Positions 3,205 to 23,226 of a DNA stretch of 26,680 nt are shown here, in pieces (position 1 is the stretch's first letter; every line of letters begins with the position of its first letter). This DNA comes from Patescibacteria group bacterium (GTDB lineage: Bacteria; Patescibacteriota; Minisyncoccia; Phycocordibacterales; UBA9973), in the NCBI GenBank assembly GCA_038058205.1, contig JBBUBO010000036.1:1-26680 (forward strand), written 5' to 3'. The translations under genes and the position numbers were made by a program. Under the pieces are notes generated by a model. It ran no database searches and had not been told where the DNA came from. It saw only the letters and a program-made list of their open reading frames with translations.

Positions 3205-3274
3205 AACCCTCTCCTGACCTCTCCCTTATCAGGGCGAGGAATATGTCCCTCTGATAAGGGGGATTTAGGGGGTT
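3205..3274. repeat. CCCTCTCC/AGGAGGG-family palindromic doublet (locus A)
   Basis: AACCCTCTCCTGACCTCTCCCTTATCAGGGCGAGG...CCCTCTGATAAGGGGGATTTAGGGGGTT; two units in inverted orientation. Confidence 0.8.
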
Positions 3275-4078: not shown

Positions 4079-4080
4079 TC

Positions 4081-4112
4081 ACCACCCCTAACCCCTCCTC
4101 AACAAGGAGGGG
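4081..4112 (+). repeat. CCCTCTCC/AGGAGGG-family single unit (locus B)
   Basis: ACCACCCCTAA-CCCCTCCT-CAACA-AGGAGGGG, perfect 8-bp stem. Confidence 0.8.
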
Positions 4113-4130: not shown

Positions 4131-4505
4131 ATGAAAGCTTTTTTAAAAAATTACAGACAGGCTCCAAGAAAAGTTCGCTTAGTGGCTGGACTCATCCGAG
4201 GAAAGAAAGTTGAAGAAGCTATCGTGGAGCTTGATTTTTTGGCGAAGCGCGCAGGATTACCTTTGAAGAAGCTTTTACTTTCTGCTGTTTCTAATGCAAA
4301 GCAAATGGGTATAGAAAAAGAAAATTTATTTATAAAAGAATTACGCGTAGATAAAGGCATAACGATGAAGAGGATGATGCCGGCTGCGATGGGTAGCGGA
4401 CACAGGATAAACAAGCGCACGAGTCACCTAACGCTTTCTCTTGGAGAGAAAGCTTCAATTACGAATGATCAATTAAAAATTAAGAAAAAAATTCGTAAAT
4501 CGTAA
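4131..4505 (+). CDS. rplV: 50S ribosomal protein L22 (uL22)
   Basis: RQAPRKVRLVAGLIRGKKVEEA..LLSAVSNA..RINKRTSHLT. Confidence 0.99.
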   Translation: MKAFLKNYRQAPRKVRLVAGLIRGKKVEEAIVELDFLAKRAGLPLKKLLLSAVSNAKQMGIEKENLFIKELRVDKGITMKRMMPAAMGSGHRINKRTSHLTLSLGEKASITNDQLKIKKKIRKS

Positions 4506-4521
4506 TTGTTAATTCGTAATT
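4457..4521. repeat. Heptamer-periodic AATTACG/ATTCGTA inverted array, overlapping the rplV 3' end
   Basis: aattacg aatgatc aattaaa aattaag ... attcgta aatcgta attgtta attcgta; related arrays at 7969-8039 and 22972-23030. Confidence 0.7.
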
Positions 4522-4528
4522 ATATTAT

Positions 4529-5272
4529 ATGTCAAAAATAGTTCATCCATATGCACATAGATTGATAATGCTTCGAGACTGGAAAAGTCGCTGGTTCGCT
4601 GATCCTAAAAAATACGTCGCTTATTTAAAGGGTGATGTTTTGATCCGTGAATATTTGGAAAAGAAATTGCGCGGAATGTACATCTCTACGATTGAAATAG
4701 AACGAAGCCGAAAGGCTACTCGATTTATCATTCGCACTTCTCGCCCGGGACTTATCATCGGCAGAAATGGTGAAGGCGCAACGAAGCTCAAAGAAGATAT
4801 TTTGAAAAAGATGGACAAGCTTGATATACCAAAGCCGGAAGATTTCAAGCTTGAAATCGTGGAAGTTACAAACCCGGAAGCGGACGCGGCTATCGTTGCT
4901 TATATGATCGCGGAAGGTTTGGAAAAGAGAATGCCTTATCGTCGTGTTATCAAAACAATTATTGAAAAGGTTATGGCGGCGCGAGGTGTGCAAGGAGCCC
5001 GAATAGTTTTGGGTGGACGACTCGGCGGAGCAGACATTGCTCGTACGGAAGAGCTCAAGAGGGGATCCGTCCCTCTCCAGAGTTTCCGCGCGGACATTGA
5101 TTTTAAGCGCGAGCGCGCGACTTTGTCGTATGGTGTTATCGGCATCAAGGTTTGGATTTATCGAGGCAAGATTTTTACTGATAAAAAAGTTTCCCATGGA
5201 TCTTTTGGTACAAATGACGCTGGTGGCAGAGAAACTTCTATCAATAATAAAAAAGCGGTAAAAATGGATTAA
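4529..5272 (+). CDS. rpsC: 30S ribosomal protein S3 (uS3)
   Basis: MSKIVHPYAHRL..IEIER..RPGLIIGRNG..GRLGGADIARTE..GSVPLQSFRADIDF..YGVIGIKVWIY. Confidence 0.99.
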   Translation: MSKIVHPYAHRLIMLRDWKSRWFADPKKYVAYLKGDVLIREYLEKKLRGMYISTIEIERSRKATRFIIRTSRPGLIIGRNGEGATKLKEDILKKMDKLDIPKPEDFKLEIVEVTNPEADAAIVAYMIAEGLEKRMPYRRVIKTIIEKVMAARGVQGARIVLGGRLGGADIARTEELKRGSVPLQSFRADIDFKRERATLSYGVIGIKVWIYRGKIFTDKKVSHGSFGTNDAGGRETSINNKKAVKMD

Positions 5273-7661: not shown

Positions 7662-7693
7662 TCTCCCCTGACAAGGGGAGACTAAGAGGGGTT
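7662..7693 (-). repeat. CCCTCTCC/AGGAGGG-family single unit (locus C, reverse orientation)
   Basis: TCTCCCCT-GACA-AGGGGAGA-CTAAGAGGGGTT. Confidence 0.75.
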
Positions 7694-7962: not shown

Positions 7963-7968
7963 GTAATC

Positions 7969-8039
7969 AATTATCAATTACGAATTAAGAATTTCAAATT
8001 AATAATCAATTCGTAATCCGTAATTAAAAATTCGTAATT
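7969..8039. repeat. Heptamer-periodic AATTACG/ATTCGTA inverted array
   Basis: aattatc aattacg aattaag aatttca ... attcgta atccgta attaaaa attcgta. Confidence 0.7.
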
Positions 8040-8046
8040 AAATCAA

Positions 8047-8433
8047 ATGGATTCAATTTCAAACATGTTAATAGTTATGAAGAATGGTAGTCTAGCAGGT
8101 AAAGAATCTGTTATTTTTCCATTTTCTAAAATGAAACAAGCAATTGCTGAATGCTTAAAAAAGGAAGGCTATGTAAACAATGTTTCAAAGAAAGTTAAAA
8201 AAGATCAGCAAGTTTTGGAAGTGGAATTACTTTATGTAGACAAGAAGCCAAAGATCGCTGAAGTAGAAAGAATTTCCAAACAATCCAAACGTGTTTATTT
8301 TGGAATCAGGGATATTCGTTCCGTCAGAAATGGGACAGGGTTGCTCGTGCTTTCAACTCCAAAAGGAATTTTATCAGGCAAAACCGCAAAAACTGAGCAG
8401 GTCGGAGGGGAGGCATTATTTAGAGTTTGGTAG
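8047..8433 (+). CDS. rpsH: 30S ribosomal protein S8 (uS8)
   Basis: MDSISNML..LKKEGYV..RISKQSKRVY..GLLVLSTPKGILS..VGGEAL. Confidence 0.99.
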   Translation: MDSISNMLIVMKNGSLAGKESVIFPFSKMKQAIAECLKKEGYVNNVSKKVKKDQQVLEVELLYVDKKPKIAEVERISKQSKRVYFGIRDIRSVRNGTGLLVLSTPKGILSGKTAKTEQVGGEALFRVW

Positions 8434-12174: not shown

Positions 12175-12247
12175 GGGTGTCAAAGGGGGTGTCAAAGGGG
12201 GTGTCAAAGGGGGTGTCAAAGGGGGTGTCAAAGGTGCCCTTTGACAC
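12175..12247. repeat. Tandem array of 5 x 12-bp GGGTGTCAAAGG plus an inverted CCTTTGACAC
   Basis: Units start at 12175, 12187, 12199, 12211 and 12223; inverted copy at 12238-12247. Confidence 0.95.
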
Positions 12248-14546: not shown

Positions 14547-17315
14547 ATGGAAAATTCATTTTTTAGTGAAGTACCTAAATTTAAAACTCCCGAAGAGGAG
14601 TTAAATTATTTGCGTGCCCAGGTGGCAAAACGCGAAGAAGAACTTGTTAAATTAGGACATACTGAAAATGCGAGAGAAAATGCAACGCATGATGTCATCG
14701 GAGAATATAAAACCGTACCGACAGAGCAAGTGGTACATGAGAGTAATATTTTAAGTAAAAAAGAAACGCAAGGGATTGTGCTTGCGTTGAAGCCTGAATC
14801 TCACGACGCTGTGATGGAAGAACTTTTGGGGATTGTGGTGACGAAAGGTGTACGTAATGCTATCGATGTGGCAGAAAAGATGAATAGTCCGCATATTAAT
14901 GATGATTTTCATCGTATCTTGGTGCAATATTTAAAATCAGATTCAAGCAAGCTTGATTCCAAAGAAGGCACACCTCTTTATCGGTCTGTGCATATGACTC
15001 TTTTCGAGATAACTTTACCACCTCCTGCAGAGCAGGCAGATAAATCAAAAGGCTTTAAAGAATTCATCGGCGCGATGGAGCAATTTTATGCTGGAATGAA
15101 TTCTATTTCTGAAGGTAAAAATAATGAGAAAGAAAATTATTTTACTTTAGAAGTGGCGCTCAGCAATCAAACTGATGAATTAGTAGTATATGCTGGAATA
15201 CCAAATAAACACGTTTCACTTTTTGAAAAACAAATTTTAGCTTTTTATCATAATGCGAAGATTCGTGAGGTGGCTGATGATTATAATGTTTTCAATCCTT
15301 CGGGAGATTCCGTCGGAGCTTATGCAATCCTCGCGGAGCGAGGTGTGCTTCCCATTAAAACATACGATACCATAGACCATGACCCCATGAGCACAATTTT
15401 AAATGTATTTTCTAAATTAAAAACCATGGGTGAAGGCGCAGCCATTCAGCTCGTCGTGGCGCCTGCTGGAGACAAGTTTATACAAGATTTTCATATTATT
15501 TTAGATGATGTAAAAGCTGGAATGTCGGTGAAGCATGCAGATAATAATTTGTATAAATTTAACAGGGCCTTTATGAAAGTTTCCAAGAATTTATTATTCG
15601 GTCATAAACAAAAAACTGAAGGATTAAGTAAGGAGCAAACCATGAAAGGCAGGCGTGCGGTGGATGAAGGGGCGGCAGAGAAAATAGTAAATAAAATGAA
15701 GAGTAGTATCATGAAAGCGAACATTCGTGTAATCGCTTCGGCAGAAACAAAAGAACGCGCGCGAGATATTTTGAAAGAGATAGAATCTTCCTTTAATCAA
15801 TTTTCGGAAACTGCCAGCAACTCTTTCGTTTTTGAAGAAGCGTCCGGCGCTGAATTGAGACAAATTTTTCATGATTTTTCTTTCCGTAGTTTTTCGCATG
15901 AAAATATATTACCTCTCAACTTAAAAGAATTGTCTTCAGTATTTCACTTCCCAGTCGGTATCGGCAGTCAGCCACAATTGAAAGAAGCAAAAGCCGGCAT
16001 CGCTCCGGCTCCGATTGAGATGAGGGTGGATGGCGTTATTTTAGGAGTAAATAGTTATCGTGGCAAAGATACAGAAATACATTTGGCGCGCGAAGACAGA
16101 ATGAGACATTTTTATGTTATCGGTCAGACGGGTACAGGTAAGACAAATGTGATGCTCAATATGATCACGCAGGACATCAGAAATGGCGACGGTTGTTGTT
16201 ATATTGACCCACATGGCACTGATATCCAAACCATTTTGTCTCGTATTCCACGTGAACGCATTGACTATGTTATTTATTTCGATCCGGCTTACACGGCGCG
16301 TCCAATGGGGCTCAATATGCTTGAATATGATCCTAAATATCCGGAACAAAAAACTTTTGTGGTGAATGAAATGATGGGAATTTTCAATAAACTTTTTGAT
16401 ATGAAAATAGGCGGTGGGGCAATGTTTGAGCAATATTTCCGAAATAGCGCGTTTTTAGTGATGGAGGATCCTGCTTCTGGCTCGACCTTGCTCGAGATTA
16501 CTCGGGTTCTCGCTGACAAAGAATTTCGTAATTTGAAACTTACTCGTTGTCAAAACCCAATCATCAAGCAATTTTGGCTTTCGGCTGAACAGACTACCGG
16601 CGACCAATCTCTCGCGAACTTTGTTCCGTATATTTCTTCTAAATTTGATAACTTCATCAGCAATGACATAATGCGTCCAGTCGTGCTTCAGCAAAATTCT
16701 GTTTTTAACTTTCGCAAAATTATGGATGAGAAGAAAATTCTTTTAGTAAATCTTTCCAAAGGTAGACTCGGAGATATCAATGCAAATTTAATTGGTCTTG
16801 TTTTGGTGGGCAAGATTCAAATGGCAGCGCTTTCTCGCGTAGATATGTTCGGTAAACCGATGAATGACTTTTATCTATATATTGATGAATTTCAAAATGT
16901 CACGACTGACTCTATCGCTTCTATCTTGTCCGAAGCTCGAAAATACAGACTCTCATTAAACATCGCGCATCAGTATATTACTCAGCTCGGCGAAAATATT
17001 AAAAATGCAGTTTTCGGCAACGTTGGTTCTATGGCAGTCTTTCGTGTCGGTACTGAGGATGCGACTTTTCTAGAACCAAAATTCAAACCGATATTTACGG
17101 CGCAAGATATTATCAAGCTTGATAATTATAATGCTTATGTAAATATGCTTGTGAACGGTCAACCGACCAAACCTTTCAACATCCAGACATTGGCGCCAGA
17201 AAAAGGAAACCCTGATATCGTGGACACATTGAAAGAATTATCTTATGTGAAATACGGCCGTGACCGCGCTGAAGTAGAAGCTGAAATTATGGGGAAGTAC
17301 AAGACGATGGAATAA
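14547..17315 (+). CDS. VirD4/TraD-like (HerA/FtsK superfamily) P-loop ATPase with a long N-terminal domain
   Basis: RMRHFYVIGQTGTGKT (Walker A), YIDPHG, FYLYIDEFQN (Walker B), LSEARKYRLSLNIAHQ, NAVFGNVGS..FRVGTEDA. Confidence 0.88.
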   Translation: MENSFFSEVPKFKTPEEELNYLRAQVAKREEELVKLGHTENARENATHDVIGEYKTVPTEQVVHESNILSKKETQGIVLALKPESHDAVMEELLGIVVTKGVRNAIDVAEKMNSPHINDDFHRILVQYLKSDSSKLDSKEGTPLYRSVHMTLFEITLPPPAEQADKSKGFKEFIGAMEQFYAGMNSISEGKNNEKENYFTLEVALSNQTDELVVYAGIPNKHVSLFEKQILAFYHNAKIREVADDYNVFNPSGDSVGAYAILAERGVLPIKTYDTIDHDPMSTILNVFSKLKTMGEGAAIQLVVAPAGDKFIQDFHIILDDVKAGMSVKHADNNLYKFNRAFMKVSKNLLFGHKQKTEGLSKEQTMKGRRAVDEGAAEKIVNKMKSSIMKANIRVIASAETKERARDILKEIESSFNQFSETASNSFVFEEASGAELRQIFHDFSFRSFSHENILPLNLKELSSVFHFPVGIGSQPQLKEAKAGIAPAPIEMRVDGVILGVNSYRGKDTEIHLAREDRMRHFYVIGQTGTGKTNVMLNMITQDIRNGDGCCYIDPHGTDIQTILSRIPRERIDYVIYFDPAYTARPMGLNMLEYDPKYPEQKTFVVNEMMGIFNKLFDMKIGGGAMFEQYFRNSAFLVMEDPASGSTLLEITRVLADKEFRNLKLTRCQNPIIKQFWLSAEQTTGDQSLANFVPYISSKFDNFISNDIMRPVVLQQNSVFNFRKIMDEKKILLVNLSKGRLGDINANLIGLVLVGKIQMAALSRVDMFGKPMNDFYLYIDEFQNVTTDSIASILSEARKYRLSLNIAHQYITQLGENIKNAVFGNVGSMAVFRVGTEDATFLEPKFKPIFTAQDIIKLDNYNAYVNMLVNGQPTKPFNIQTLAPEKGNPDIVDTLKELSYVKYGRDRAEVEAEIMGKYKTME

Positions 17316-17317
17316 AA

Positions 17318-17395
17318 AACCTCACCCTGACCCTCTCCTGGAAGGCGAGGGTGAATCAGCCCCTTCTCCTTTCAGGAGAAGGCTGGGATGAGGTT
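17318..17395. repeat. CCCTCTCC/AGGAGGG-family doublet (locus D), downstream flank of the DUF559 gene
   Basis: AACCTCACCCTGACCCTCTCCTGGAAGGCGAGGGTGAATCAGCCCCTTCTCCTTTCAGGAGAAGGCTGGGATGAGGTT. Confidence 0.9.
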
Positions 17396-17744
17396 GTAAT
17401 TCTAGTTTTTCTAAAATTATTTTAAGTACAGAATCAATATTTGTATTAATTTCATTGTTCCAAAATCTTATGGTCTGAATTCCAAGATTCAAAAAATATT
17501 TCTCTCTGTCTTTATCATATTCTTTATTATCTAAATGCTGAGATCCATCTATCTCTATTATCAAAAGCTTTTTTGAACAATAAAAATCAGCAATGTATGG
17601 GCCAATGCTGACTTGTCTTTTCCACTTTTGGTTTGTTTGGTTGTTGCGAAGTCTGGACCAAAGAATTATTTCTTGCGGGGTTTGATTTTTTCTTAGTTCT
17701 TTCCTTATGTTTTTTCTTAGGAAATTGTTTACTATTCTAGGCAT
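17322..17744 (-). CDS. DUF559 / Vsr-like PD-(D/E)xK endonuclease
   Basis: RKELRKNQTPQEIILWSRLRN..KWKRQVSIGPYIADFYC..LIIEIDGSQH..DKDREKYF..IRFWNNEI; ATG 17744 has TATAAT 6 nt upstream; the C-terminal tail reads through repeat D. Confidence 0.93.
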   Translation of the reverse strand: MPRIVNNFLRKNIRKELRKNQTPQEIILWSRLRNNQTNQKWKRQVSIGPYIADFYCSKKLLIIEIDGSQHLDNKEYDKDREKYFLNLGIQTIRFWNNEINTNIDSVLKIILEKLELQPHPSLLLKGEGADSPSPSRRGSG

Positions 17745-17766
17745 AAAGTAATTATACACCTCACCC

Positions 17767-17848
17767 AACCTCACCCTGACCCTCTCCTGGAAAGGAGAGG
17801 GGGAATTCAGCCCCTTCCCCTTTTCAGGGGAAGGCGAGGGATGAGGTT
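17767..17848. repeat. CCCTCTCC/AGGAGGG-family doublet (locus E), upstream flank of the DUF559 gene
   Basis: AACCTCACCCTGACCCTCTCCTGGAAAGGAGAGGGGGAATTCAGCCCCTTCCCCTTTTCAGGGGAAGGCGAGGGATGAGGTT; direct repeat of locus D. Confidence 0.9.
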
Positions 17849-17866
17849 TTATGTTAAGATATTTTT

Positions 17867-18442
17867 ATGGAAGAATTTGAGATGAAATTTTTAGAAGTTG
17901 ATGTGCCGGAGCTGGAAAAGAAACTCTTAGACATCGGCGCCACGAAAGTGGGCGAGTTTGATTATAGTCGAATGATTTTTCATTATCCTGATAGTAATAT
18001 GCACAAAAGAGGTGGATGGATTCGTCTTCGGACTGATGGAAAAGAGTCAACACTTACTTATAAAGAGAGTATTAAAGAAAAACTAGATGATGGAAGTATG
18101 AAGAATATTGGAATGAAAGAAATAGAAGTAAAAGTTGATGATTATGAAAAAACTTACGAATTAATTAAAGCAATCGGACTTGTAAAACAAGTAGAAGAAA
18201 AAAATAAAAGAATACGTTATATCAAAGGAGATGTAGTTTTCGATATAGATTTTTGGCCTTTTATTCCGACCTATCTTGAAATTGAGTCTAGTTCTCATGA
18301 GAAAGCAAAAGAATTTGCAAAAAAACTTGGTTTTGAACCCCAAGAGGGTATTATAGGTTCCGCCGGAAGTATTTATAAAAAATATGGTATTAACATAGAT
18401 GATTATTCTTCTATAACTTTTGAAGGAATGGTTAAAAATTAA
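17867..18442 (+). CDS. CYTH (class IV adenylate cyclase-like / triphosphate tunnel) protein
   Basis: N-terminal ExExK (EFEMKF); WIRLR..TLTYK..EIEVKV..KRIRY..DIDFWP..YLEIE. Confidence 0.9.
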   Translation: MEEFEMKFLEVDVPELEKKLLDIGATKVGEFDYSRMIFHYPDSNMHKRGGWIRLRTDGKESTLTYKESIKEKLDDGSMKNIGMKEIEVKVDDYEKTYELIKAIGLVKQVEEKNKRIRYIKGDVVFDIDFWPFIPTYLEIESSSHEKAKEFAKKLGFEPQEGIIGSAGSIYKKYGINIDDYSSITFEGMVKN

Positions 18443-21860: not shown

Positions 21861-21943
21861 TCCCCTCCTTAACAAGGAGGGGAATGAGGGGAGGTTCTTA
21901 ATTAATTCACCTCACCCCAACCCTCTCCTTATTAAGGAGAGGG
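21861..21943. repeat. CCCTCTCC/AGGAGGG-family pair in tail-to-tail orientation (locus F)
   Basis: TCCCCTCCTT-AAC-AAGGAGGGGA-ATGAGGGGAGGTT and CACCTCACCCCAA-CCCTCTCCTT-ATT-AAGGAGAGGG. Confidence 0.85.
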
Positions 21944-22619: not shown

Positions 22620-22964
22620 TTACTTTACTGCTTCGAAAACCTTTGCAAATGTTTTAGGGTTGTTTTCTGCTAGGTCAGCGAGAATCTTGCGGTCAATTAC
22701 TATATCTTTCTTTTTAAGAGCATCGATGAATTTGGAGTAGGACATACCGAGTTCACGACTGCCAGCGTTTATTTTGATATTCCAAAGTTTGCGATTATGA
22801 GACTTTTTATCTTTGCGGTGGGCGAAAGCGTAATTGCCAGCATGAAGAATAGCTTCTTTTGCTTGGCGTTCTTTTGTACTTCGGCCGTGTCGGAAACCTT
22901 TTGTTTGTTTTAATACACTTCTTCGTCTCTTTAATGCATGTACTCCTTTTTTAACTCTTGTCAT
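22620..22964 (-). CDS. rplT: 50S ribosomal protein L20 (bL20)
   Basis: MTRVKKG..KGFR..YAFAHRK..RKLWNIKINA..YSKFIDALKK..DRKILADLA. Confidence 0.99.
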   Translation of the reverse strand: MTRVKKGVHALKRRRSVLKQTKGFRHGRSTKERQAKEAILHAGNYAFAHRKDKKSHNRKLWNIKINAGSRELGMSYSKFIDALKKKDIVIDRKILADLAENNPKTFAKVFEAVK

Positions 22965-22971
22965 ATAATTT

Positions 22972-23030
22972 AATTACGAATTGTCAATTATGAATTACGA
23001 ATTTAAATTCCTAATTCGTAATTGTTAATT
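22972..23030. repeat. Heptamer-periodic AATTACG/ATTCGTA array
   Basis: aattacg aattgtc aattatg aattacg aatttaa attccta attcgta attgtta. Confidence 0.7.
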
Positions 23031-23031
23031 T

Positions 23032-23226
23032 TTAATTGAACGGTAGCAGGTGACTCTTTGGTTTATTTTTTATTACAAAATTCTGACCTTTGCGTCCTGC
23101 GAGTTGCATCGTGCGGGATTGCTTCGCATTGAAATGGTTAAAACCAGGTTTACGAGAAATAATCTTGCCGTTTTTGGTAAGCTTTAATCTTTTACTATAT
23201 GATTTATTTGTCTTCATTCCTTTCAT
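23032..23226 (-). CDS. rpmI: 50S ribosomal protein L35 (bL35); start may be 23217
   Basis: MKTNKSYSKRLKLTKNGKI..HFNAKQS; position between infC and rplT. Confidence 0.95.
   Translation of the reverse strand: MKGMKTNKSYSKRLKLTKNGKIISRKPGFNHFNAKQSRTMQLAGRKGQNFVIKNKPKSHLLPFN

Follow-up and report, generated by a model that had tools for sequence, protein, structure and literature searches.

Does a nuclease gene that stands between short palindromic repeats form one mobile unit with them, or do gene and repeats only share the same stretch of DNA? This question was raised by a window of a Patescibacteria group bacterium, the entire 26,680-bp contig C36 of genome G000 (413 kb in 69 contigs, 37% GC, 76% complete), in which a gene of the DUF559 nuclease family is bracketed by two repeat doublets. 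The preliminary description of the locus had likened it to the RAYT-REP/REPIN systems and proposed it as an undescribed one. A survey of 61 genomes of the genus (34 DUF559-positive, 27 DUF559-negative) and of loci from other phyla indicated that the gene and its repeats are inserted or lost whole as one unit, that each nuclease clade has its own repeat type, and that gene-less single units and doublets of the cassette types are dispersed through the genome, about half of them in frame in housekeeping genes. We give an even chance to the reading that the locus is one copy of a selfish cassette, in which a DUF559 nuclease gene of about 115–140 aa stands between GC-rich units and the nuclease acts on its own units.

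The DUF559 locus and its counterparts

The features of the locus in the window are as follows, with the strand in brackets.

17316–17866 (no strand assigned): inserted block, comprising a doublet, the DUF559 gene, a doublet and, ahead of the CYTH start codon, an 18-nt tail that carries a promoter
17318–17395 (+): doublet 1, 78 nt; forward unit with leader 17318–17327 and hairpin 17330–17352 with one T.C mismatch, reverse unit with hairpin 17362–17382 and G-rich third strand 17386–17395
17767–17848 (+): doublet 2, 82 nt; forward unit with leader 17767–17776 and hairpin 17780–17801, reverse unit with hairpin 17811–17836 and third strand 17838–17848
17322–17744 (−): DUF559 gene, 140 aa from the ATG at 17744; Pfam PF04480, Vsr-like PD-(D/E)xK nuclease
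17751–17766 (−): TATAAT box (17751–17756), 6 nt before the ATG, joined to an extra partial third-strand copy, GGGTGAGGTG (17757–17766), as read from the sequence

The two doublets of about 80 nt were found where they had first been placed and are 89% identical. The closing 11 nt (GGGATGAGGTT) are common to both, and the shared opening, given earlier as 24 nt, in fact consists of 26 identical nt. Each doublet opens with a forward unit (C-rich leader and hairpin, 3 nt apart) and, past a 9-nt spacer, closes with a reverse unit (hairpin and G-rich trailer, again 3 nt apart), which agrees with the two inverted hairpins described for it. The partly compensatory stem differences were also present, with a compensatory pair separating the second hairpins of the two doublets (CCTTCTCCT/AGGAGAAGG versus CCTTCCCCT/AGGGGAAGG), and the first hairpin of doublet 1 has a single T.C mismatch (AGGCGAGGG). 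The DUF559 domain ends near 17400, and the final 25 codons (QPHPSLLLKGEGADSPSPSRRGSG) read through doublet 1. The gene start had been set at a GTG at 17774; the ATG at 17744, 6 nt past the TATAAT box, is most likely the correct one. This box is the putative DUF559 promoter, and the repeat end may contribute part of it. The junction of the TATAAT box with the partial third-strand copy (GGTGAGGTGTATAAT) was observed at 17751–17766 of the window and in the sister gene L070 of genome G061, which has the same fusion (GGTGAGGTATAAT).

Hairpin units were counted with a detector that required a pyrimidine 5′ arm. Run on the whole 413-kb genome and on five shuffles, it found 59 units in the genome versus 0–1 in each shuffle, and a generic IUPAC pattern gave 72 matches per strand versus 3 for a reversed-pattern control; the number of units is far above chance expectation. 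Copy counts were obtained with IUPAC patterns and the reversed-pattern control. A covariance model of the unit was abandoned because the stems were out of register, MAFFT having placed no internal gaps in 29 units.

The flanking test covered 57 full-length DUF559 genes, taken from the genus and three outgroup loci, and counted a hairpin if it lay at most 260 nt away. Such a hairpin was present at 48 of the 57 genes, with hairpins on both sides of 25. The hairpin density was 2.71 per kb near the gene versus 0.18 per kb elsewhere in the same loci, a 15-fold difference, and was 0.15 per kb genome-wide. Orientation was also biased, the upstream units being forward in 29 cases and reverse in 1, and the downstream units reverse in 15 and forward in 5. 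The usual layout is a forward unit, 10–25 nt, the ATG, the gene to the end of its domain, 0–30 nt and a reverse unit, so that one inverted pair surrounds the gene. The direct doublets on both sides that had drawn attention to the locus are an exception to this layout. The window is the sole upstream-reverse case, with its gene between two complete doublets and not within one pair, and a comparable direct duplication of the doublet was found in clade C (L021, L138).

The same arrangement was recovered outside the genus. Using a 6-sequence DUF559 alignment as the query, 80 cross-phylum loci were retrieved from Patescibacteria, Chloroflexota, Pseudomonadota, Bacteroidota, Nitrospirota, Planctomycetota and others, a set skewed to relatives of clades A, C, D, and F because the query held only these 6 sequences. 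Hairpins flanked 60 of the 80 loci, at a density of 2.86 versus 0.17 per kb, and the third strand frequently faced the gene, as it does in the window. The preliminary description had staked its case on flanked homologs, and these prevailed in the genus set and across phyla alike.

Its second expectation, that DUF559 clades would co-vary with repeat type, agreed with the data as well. Five well-supported clades (B to F) were resolved in a tree of 58 DUF559 domains, and a separate hairpin type belonged to each.

Clade B: CCCT, loop TGTC or GATA
Clade C: CCCCTCCT
Clade D: CCCTCCCCCT, loop ACAT
Clade E: copies read through in frame
Clade F: loop GCGA

Type A was distributed over several DUF559 clades. 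When the type labels were mapped on the DUF559 tree, 13 changes were counted versus a mean of 29.5 and a minimum of 26 in 300 permutations, none of which was as low. The second DUF559 gene of the genome (G000:C29; 32% identical) has units of another type around it, with the leader ATACAACCCC. Since members of the same clade occupy unrelated gene neighbourhoods, the gene and its repeats travel together. The association between gene and repeat is real, strong, and general.

Gain, loss and dispersal of cassettes and units

The preliminary description had also suggested that the gene and repeats move as one cassette, and filled and empty sites bear this out. A single nucleotide separates the stop codon of the VirD4-like ATPase gene from the CYTH ATG in three relatives (L035, L048, L055), versus about 550 nt in the window; the block 17316–17866 is therefore an insertion. 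An empty site with one remaining doublet, which had been anticipated after the ATPase gene, was absent among the relatives examined, in which the next gene abuts or other cargo is present. Such cargo included a HicAB-like pair (G003; L044), small open reading frames (ORFs; L045, L052) and, in G005 (L046), a DUF559 gene of another clade on the opposite strand. The junction after the ATPase gene (window 17312–17870; loci L033–L061) is a hot spot for small cargo. A Nomurabacteria genome (L124) has the doublet-gene-doublet layout next to the same ATPase gene, with a protein 89% and DNA 74.5% identical to those of the window, and hence the window copy is old and vertically kept.

Closer sister genomes gave the cleanest comparison. 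G076 carries three DUF559 genes and G080, its sister on the ribosomal-protein tree, carries none, the flanking DNA being 86–89% identical. In the leucyl-tRNA synthetase gene (LeuRS), G076 has a 457-nt block with the ends AACCCCTCC ... GGAGGGGTT in place of 13 nt in G080, between flanks that are 87–88% identical. The net difference of 444 nt, or 148 codons, is in frame, and the proteins read EIDFEI/KNNN/EKIKVFTTRPDT in G080 versus EIDFEI/RGNPSPALPEGEGE-DUF559-LSFGEDLGGVEL/ETIKVFTTRPDT in G076. A second cassette measures 950 nt versus 36 nt, and at the third site G080 retains no more than the last ~26 codons of a DUF559 gene beside type-A units. Cassettes of clade E share one LeuRS loop in G034, G026, G076, and G010; in G080 the allele is cleanly empty. 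The LeuRS doublet of the genome studied here and the DUF559 cassette of G034 were considered as an empty/filled pair and rejected; the doublet is of type A and the cassette of type E, and the two are therefore independent insertions in the same loop. In the LeuRS of G026 (L018, contig C23), an extra insert of ~190 aa (…VILHGKHGTPENYF…THSFGG…), which by eye resembles a small alpha/beta-hydrolase domain, directly precedes the in-frame DUF559 cassette.

Gene-less units were located in the window at four further places, all of them as first described, which brings the contig to about 10 units.

3206–3274 (+): orphan pair after rplB; forward unit with leader ACCCTCTCC and hairpin 3218–3239 with a T.C mismatch, degenerate reverse unit 3246–3274 (3205–3274 in the preliminary description)
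4080–4112 (+): orphan type-C forward unit between rpsS and rplV; leader CACCACCCC, hairpin 4092–4112 (previously 4081–4112)
7662–7693 (+): orphan type-B reverse unit between rplE and rpsN; hairpin 7662–7681, third strand AGAGGGGTT 7685–7693
21861–21943 (+): tail-to-tail pair between an MBL-fold nuclease gene and a LOG-family gene; reverse unit 21861–21896, type-A forward unit 21908–21943

The pair after rplB was absent from that site in all 24 relatives with a locatable rplB end, and the type-C unit between rpsS and rplV was found at the same site in G034 alone (L105) among 30 genomes compared. In most other genomes the rpsS-rplV spacer is unrelated (ttcgacaagctcactataaataatt...), the type-C unit substituting for the spacer without a simple interruption.

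Many units lie inside genes. Of the 59 units of the genome, 29 are in frame within 20 long ORFs with at least 50 codons on each side (contigs C1, C4, C23, C32, C53, C58, C59, C65, C66, and others; loci L242–L251), and all 10 unit-bearing ORFs tested were real genes by Pfam, namely those for DNA polymerase I (PolA), FtsK, a class-I tRNA synthetase, PNPase, IF-2, LepA, LeuRS, topoisomerase I (TopA), NAD-dependent ligase (LigA), and a class-V aminotransferase. The units encode peptides such as TSPQPSPYKGEGE or SGTPPQKGGE. Arms made of pyrimidines only or purines only should hold no stop codon on either strand, so that loops and linkers alone would restrict the reading frames. Rickettsia palindromic elements (RPE) are likewise short palindromic repeats that stand in frame in many housekeeping genes and are kept in the proteins; RPE are longer than the present units and AT-rich, and we know of no partner gene described for them.

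The LeuRS doublet (G000:C65:11193–11272) was, by eye in an alignment, ~95% identical to the doublet upstream of the Nomurabacteria DUF559 gene (L124:1035–1115); by contrast, identity between the two genomes falls to ~75% over the DUF559 insertion regions. Given these values, either the repeats are under strong constraint or they were exchanged recently. In the class-I tRNA synthetase ORF (L244; G000:C32:5917–8874), a histidine-phosphatase domain (PF00300, residues 287–456) lies between the synthetase segments. Other repeats of the window are of separate kinds, namely five copies of a 12-nt tandem repeat, GGGTGTCAAAGG, at 12175–12234, and an intergenic AT-rich family built on AATTCGTAAT-like words, with direct and inverted copies, at 4445–4535, 7964–8049, and 22958–23047.

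It had further been asked whether DUF559 presence predicts repeat abundance; the counts agreed with this in direction and, type by type, for B and C, although repeats clearly persist without the gene as well. The median number of generic matches was 24 in the 34 DUF559-positive versus 4 in the 27 negative genomes (Mann-Whitney p 3e-5, phylogeny uncorrected), and all nine genomes with more than 41 generic matches carry DUF559. The negatives include the unpublished genome G084 (8 matches), whose omission alters nothing material. The counts by type, in genomes with and without the cognate clade, were as follows.

Type B: 7–17 copies in 6 genomes with; median 0 in 55 without, with the exceptions G007 (22) and G006 (13)
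Type C: 6–21 copies with; median 0 without
Type F: 2–12 copies with; maximum 5 without
Type D: the gene's own flanks only with; mostly 0, at most 4, without

The excess of the cognate type remains for B, C, and F after removal of 4 copies per gene. Sister pairs were drawn over all branches of a weakly resolved tree of four ribosomal proteins; restricting them to well-supported branches gave 2–5 pairs and therefore no power. Pairs with the gene side higher:lower were as follows.

Any DUF559, raw: 14:5 (p 0.03)
Any DUF559, minus 6 per gene: 11:9
Type B, minus 4 per gene: 6:0
Type C, minus 4 per gene: 5:0
Type F, minus 4 per gene: 3:1
Type A, minus 4 per gene: 6:10

The repeat unit and the nuclease

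Each unit has a 5′ arm entirely of C and T, a 3′ arm entirely of A and G and a loop of 3–8 nt, and the mirror image of the pyrimidine arm sits about 3 nt off on one side of the hairpin (for example ACCCCTCT with the stem TCTCCCCT, ACCCCTCC with CCTCCCCT, and ACCCCCT with TCCCCCT). About 46 of the 59 units have such a one-sided third block with a mirror match of at least 70% and a linker mostly of 3 nt. The third block matched the mirror of its own stem at 0.73, higher than as a direct repeat (0.66) or against the stems of other types (0.63). The leaders track the stem mirror in types A to D, A replacing T at some positions in types A and C. The alignment of five type-A doublets shows a C:G to T:A replacement in the outer pair of hairpin 1 that goes with C becoming T in the leader, which is what the replacement of a C+.G:C by a T.A:T triplet would require; the trailer does not follow the compensatory change from T:A to C:G in hairpin 2. 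Intrinsic terminators were ruled out, as no T-runs follow the hairpins.

The T.C mismatch, in which the purine arm GGCGAGGG faces CCCTCTCC, recurs in several phyla (window 17330–17352 and 3218–3239; L076, L086, L142, L175), and clade-D units retain a C.T or A.G stem mismatch (AGGGTGAGGG, CCTCCACCT). One might speculate that a conserved mismatch in an extruded hairpin could matter to a Vsr-like, mismatch-reading nuclease.

Judged by this architecture, the repeats follow the intrastrand-triplex-motif design of BoxC/PIT/TMECO, known from E. coli and other bacteria (PMC4666352), and are of no new kind, which narrows the earlier suggestion of an undescribed system. Both have a pyrimidine arm, a loop, a purine arm, a 3-nt linker and a third block able to lie on the duplex, frequently with one stem mismatch, and both are dispersed and strongly over-represented in the genome. 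The published TMECO consensus, CCCTCNCCC N3-6 GGGNGAGGG N3 GGGNGAGGG (Holder et al., 2015; PMC4666352), is never matched exactly here, with 0 hits in the genome at up to 2 mismatches and 9, in type-A units, at 3 mismatches (24 of 27 specified positions), and several distinct types occur side by side. TMECO copies are reported to be always intergenic, with no mobility gene found nearby (PMC4666352), whereas about half of the present units are in frame within genes and a nuclease gene is their regular neighbour. The DUF559 nuclease family is the best candidate for the partner enzyme of such triplex-motif repeats. To our knowledge, BoxC/PIT/TMECO repeats have stood since the 1990s without a function or partner gene.

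DUF559 is a very common, widespread nuclease domain of uncharacterised function. The ORF of the window matched Pfam DUF559 (PF04480) with 108.5 bits against a cut-off of 20.6 (E 2e-31) and matched PDB entry 3HRL, an uncharacterised Neisseria protein, with E 4e-17. An AlphaFold2 model with a predicted local distance difference test (pLDDT) value of 88 was closest in fold to 3HRL (template modelling (TM) score 0.77–0.84), then to the catalytic domain of I-Bth0305I (3R3P; TM 0.69–0.77), and more weakly to PvuRts1I and Vsr. Across the 57 aligned genes, copies fused into host proteins included, D42, E53, D55, H59, and D66 are invariant, and R7, E14, W18, R32, Q33, D42, F43, E53, D55, G56, H59, D66, R69, and R82 are invariant or nearly so. 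The acidic and histidine residues are presumably equivalent to D51, H69, and D97 of Vsr, and on the strength of the model and this conservation DUF559 is likely an active enzyme. The window protein consists of only the catalytic domain of ~103 aa and two short N-terminal helices.

A proposed selfish cassette and its alternatives

How could such a cassette spread? The nuclease, probably dimeric like its nearest characterised relative I-Bth0305I, would recognise its own inverted unit pair and nick or cut there, and a gene that splits the inverted pair read by the dimer would obey the logic of homing. Recombinational repair would then copy the cassette or the cassette ends. Doublets and single units would be either products of internal deletion or substrates for the enzyme in trans, standing to the cassette as miniature inverted-repeat transposable elements (MITEs) do to their transposon. 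In the window, the whole doublets on both sides could have arisen by recombination of a doublet-bearing cassette with another doublet.

The parallel with REP/REPIN-RAYT held for the layout. In both systems, short palindromic repeats in inverted orientation enclose the gene of a DNA-cutting enzyme and also occur genome-wide as singles and inverted doublets, and enzyme clades are paired with repeat types. The parallel did not hold for the gene. The enzyme here is a Vsr-like PD-(D/E)xK nuclease instead of an IS200/IS605-like HUH/Y1 tyrosine transposase, and the units have a third strand and no GTAG head. RAYT is single-copy and vertically inherited, whereas DUF559 is present in 0–5 copies per genome in 34 of the 61 genomes, scattered on the species tree and at many sites, even in frame in essential genes, and with truncated remnants. 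Because it is multi-copy, patchy, often decayed, and inserted at many sites, DUF559 behaves like a selfish element and not like a domesticated single-copy gene.

A more specific claim is possible, if doubtful, namely that DUF559 is the missing partner enzyme of the BoxC/PIT/TMECO repeats. Each clade would recognise and nick the hairpin plus third strand of its own type and thereby drive the copying of an autonomous cassette of ~440 bp and of its gene-less derivatives, and the arms, free of stop codons in all six frames, would allow these to settle in frame in essential genes.

Several observations weigh against the cassette reading. Co-inheritance alone can yield covariation of clade and type. 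After subtraction of 6 matches per gene, the medians of 15 versus 4 differ with p 0.065 and the sister pairs stand at the 11:9 given above; type A shows no excess after correction, and type D has nearly no copies outside the gene's own flanks. Six DUF559-less genomes hold 17–37 generic matches, among them G078, the closest relative at the ATPase gene (96% identity), with 32. Type-B and type-C units are also numerous in G006 and G007, neither of which has a B or C gene. At 89–93% identity, the repeat copies within the genome give no indication of very recent spread. The empty LeuRS allele of G080 contains no repeat and so lends no support to homing into a pre-existing doublet. No target-site duplication was readable at the ATPase/CYTH junction, in the rpsS-rplV and rplB-rpsS spacers or in the G076/G080 pairs, and at the sites inspected for it the spacers were replaced, not simply interrupted. 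Two intact doublets lie uncut beside the window gene. Finally, we know of no biochemical activity, cut site or target-site duplication for any DUF559 protein.

The persistence of repeats in gene-less genomes, including the B and C units of G006 and G007, would fit with units that are independent structural or MITE-like repeats, moved or produced by replication slippage, recombination or another enzyme and amassing in dispensable DNA, in which DUF559 would be an often-transferred accessory gene, serving for example in defence or mismatch repair. The weaker overall association after subtraction of flanking copies agrees with this, as does the ATPase/CYTH junction being a general hot spot with HicAB-like and other cargo in relatives. 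We nevertheless consider this explanation unlikely, because it leaves unexplained the fixed spacing and orientation of the units around the gene, the same layout in many phyla, the clade-specific types at unrelated loci, and the enrichment of types B and C in independent pairs; moreover, the other hot-spot cargo genes inspected (L044, L045, L052) had no such units with the same detector.

Less probable again is that DUF559 is a free-standing homing endonuclease acting on uninterrupted host sequence, such as the LeuRS loop or gene junctions, with the terminal repeats as accessories, either stop-free Pro/Gly-rich linkers or signals for recombination or expression. The nearest characterised fold is indeed that of the EDxHD homing endonuclease I-Bth0305I, with which DUF559 shares the conserved acidic and histidine residues, a selfish, patchy occurrence with decayed copies, a presence/absence allele in a conserved gene, seen in the common LeuRS loop of the E-clade cassettes and its clean empty allele, and possibly the logic of a pseudo-palindromic target. 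The repeat-encoded peptides (NPSPALPEGEGE, LSFGEDLGGV) are also linker-like. The dimeric I-Bth0305I cuts at a pseudo-palindromic site and carries an additional region for DNA binding, NUMOD/HTH (helix-turn-helix) (PMC3239194), whereas the DUF559 proteins here have no such N-terminal, sequence-reading domain. Neither an intron nor an intein is involved, the E-clade copies in LeuRS being read through in frame, and most cassettes are intergenic and at unrelated sites. The cassette also differs in having repeat ends, and the dozens of gene-less units of cognate type and the third-strand design would remain unexplained.

That the flanking hairpins act as terminators or insulators, sequester the ribosome-binding site or stabilise mRNA to restrain a potentially toxic nuclease, the scattered copies doing likewise for other genes, is very unlikely: the purine arm (AAGGAGAGG or AAGGAGGGG) is Shine-Dalgarno-like and lies 10–25 nt before the ATG in most cassettes, downstream units lie at the stop codon and many orphan units directly after stop codons, but the hairpins have no following T-run, PIT/BoxC elements in E. 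coli reportedly act neither as promoters nor as terminators (PMC4666352), coding frames contain half of the units of this genome, and the third strand and the clade-specific types are left unexplained.

The proposed cassette combines a repeat kind and a nuclease fold that are both known already, and the link between them is the new element; no paper linking DUF559 to triplex-motif repeats was found in the literature searched. If true, this specific, clade-matched link would provide a function for both DUF559 and the BoxC/PIT/TMECO repeats and define a new class of mobile element driven by a Vsr-like nuclease instead of a transposase. It would account for the instability reported at TMECO loci, and it would explain the repeat-encoded peptides in DNA polymerase I, LeuRS, IF-2, LepA, PNPase, ligase, and topoisomerase of the streamlined Patescibacteria genomes.

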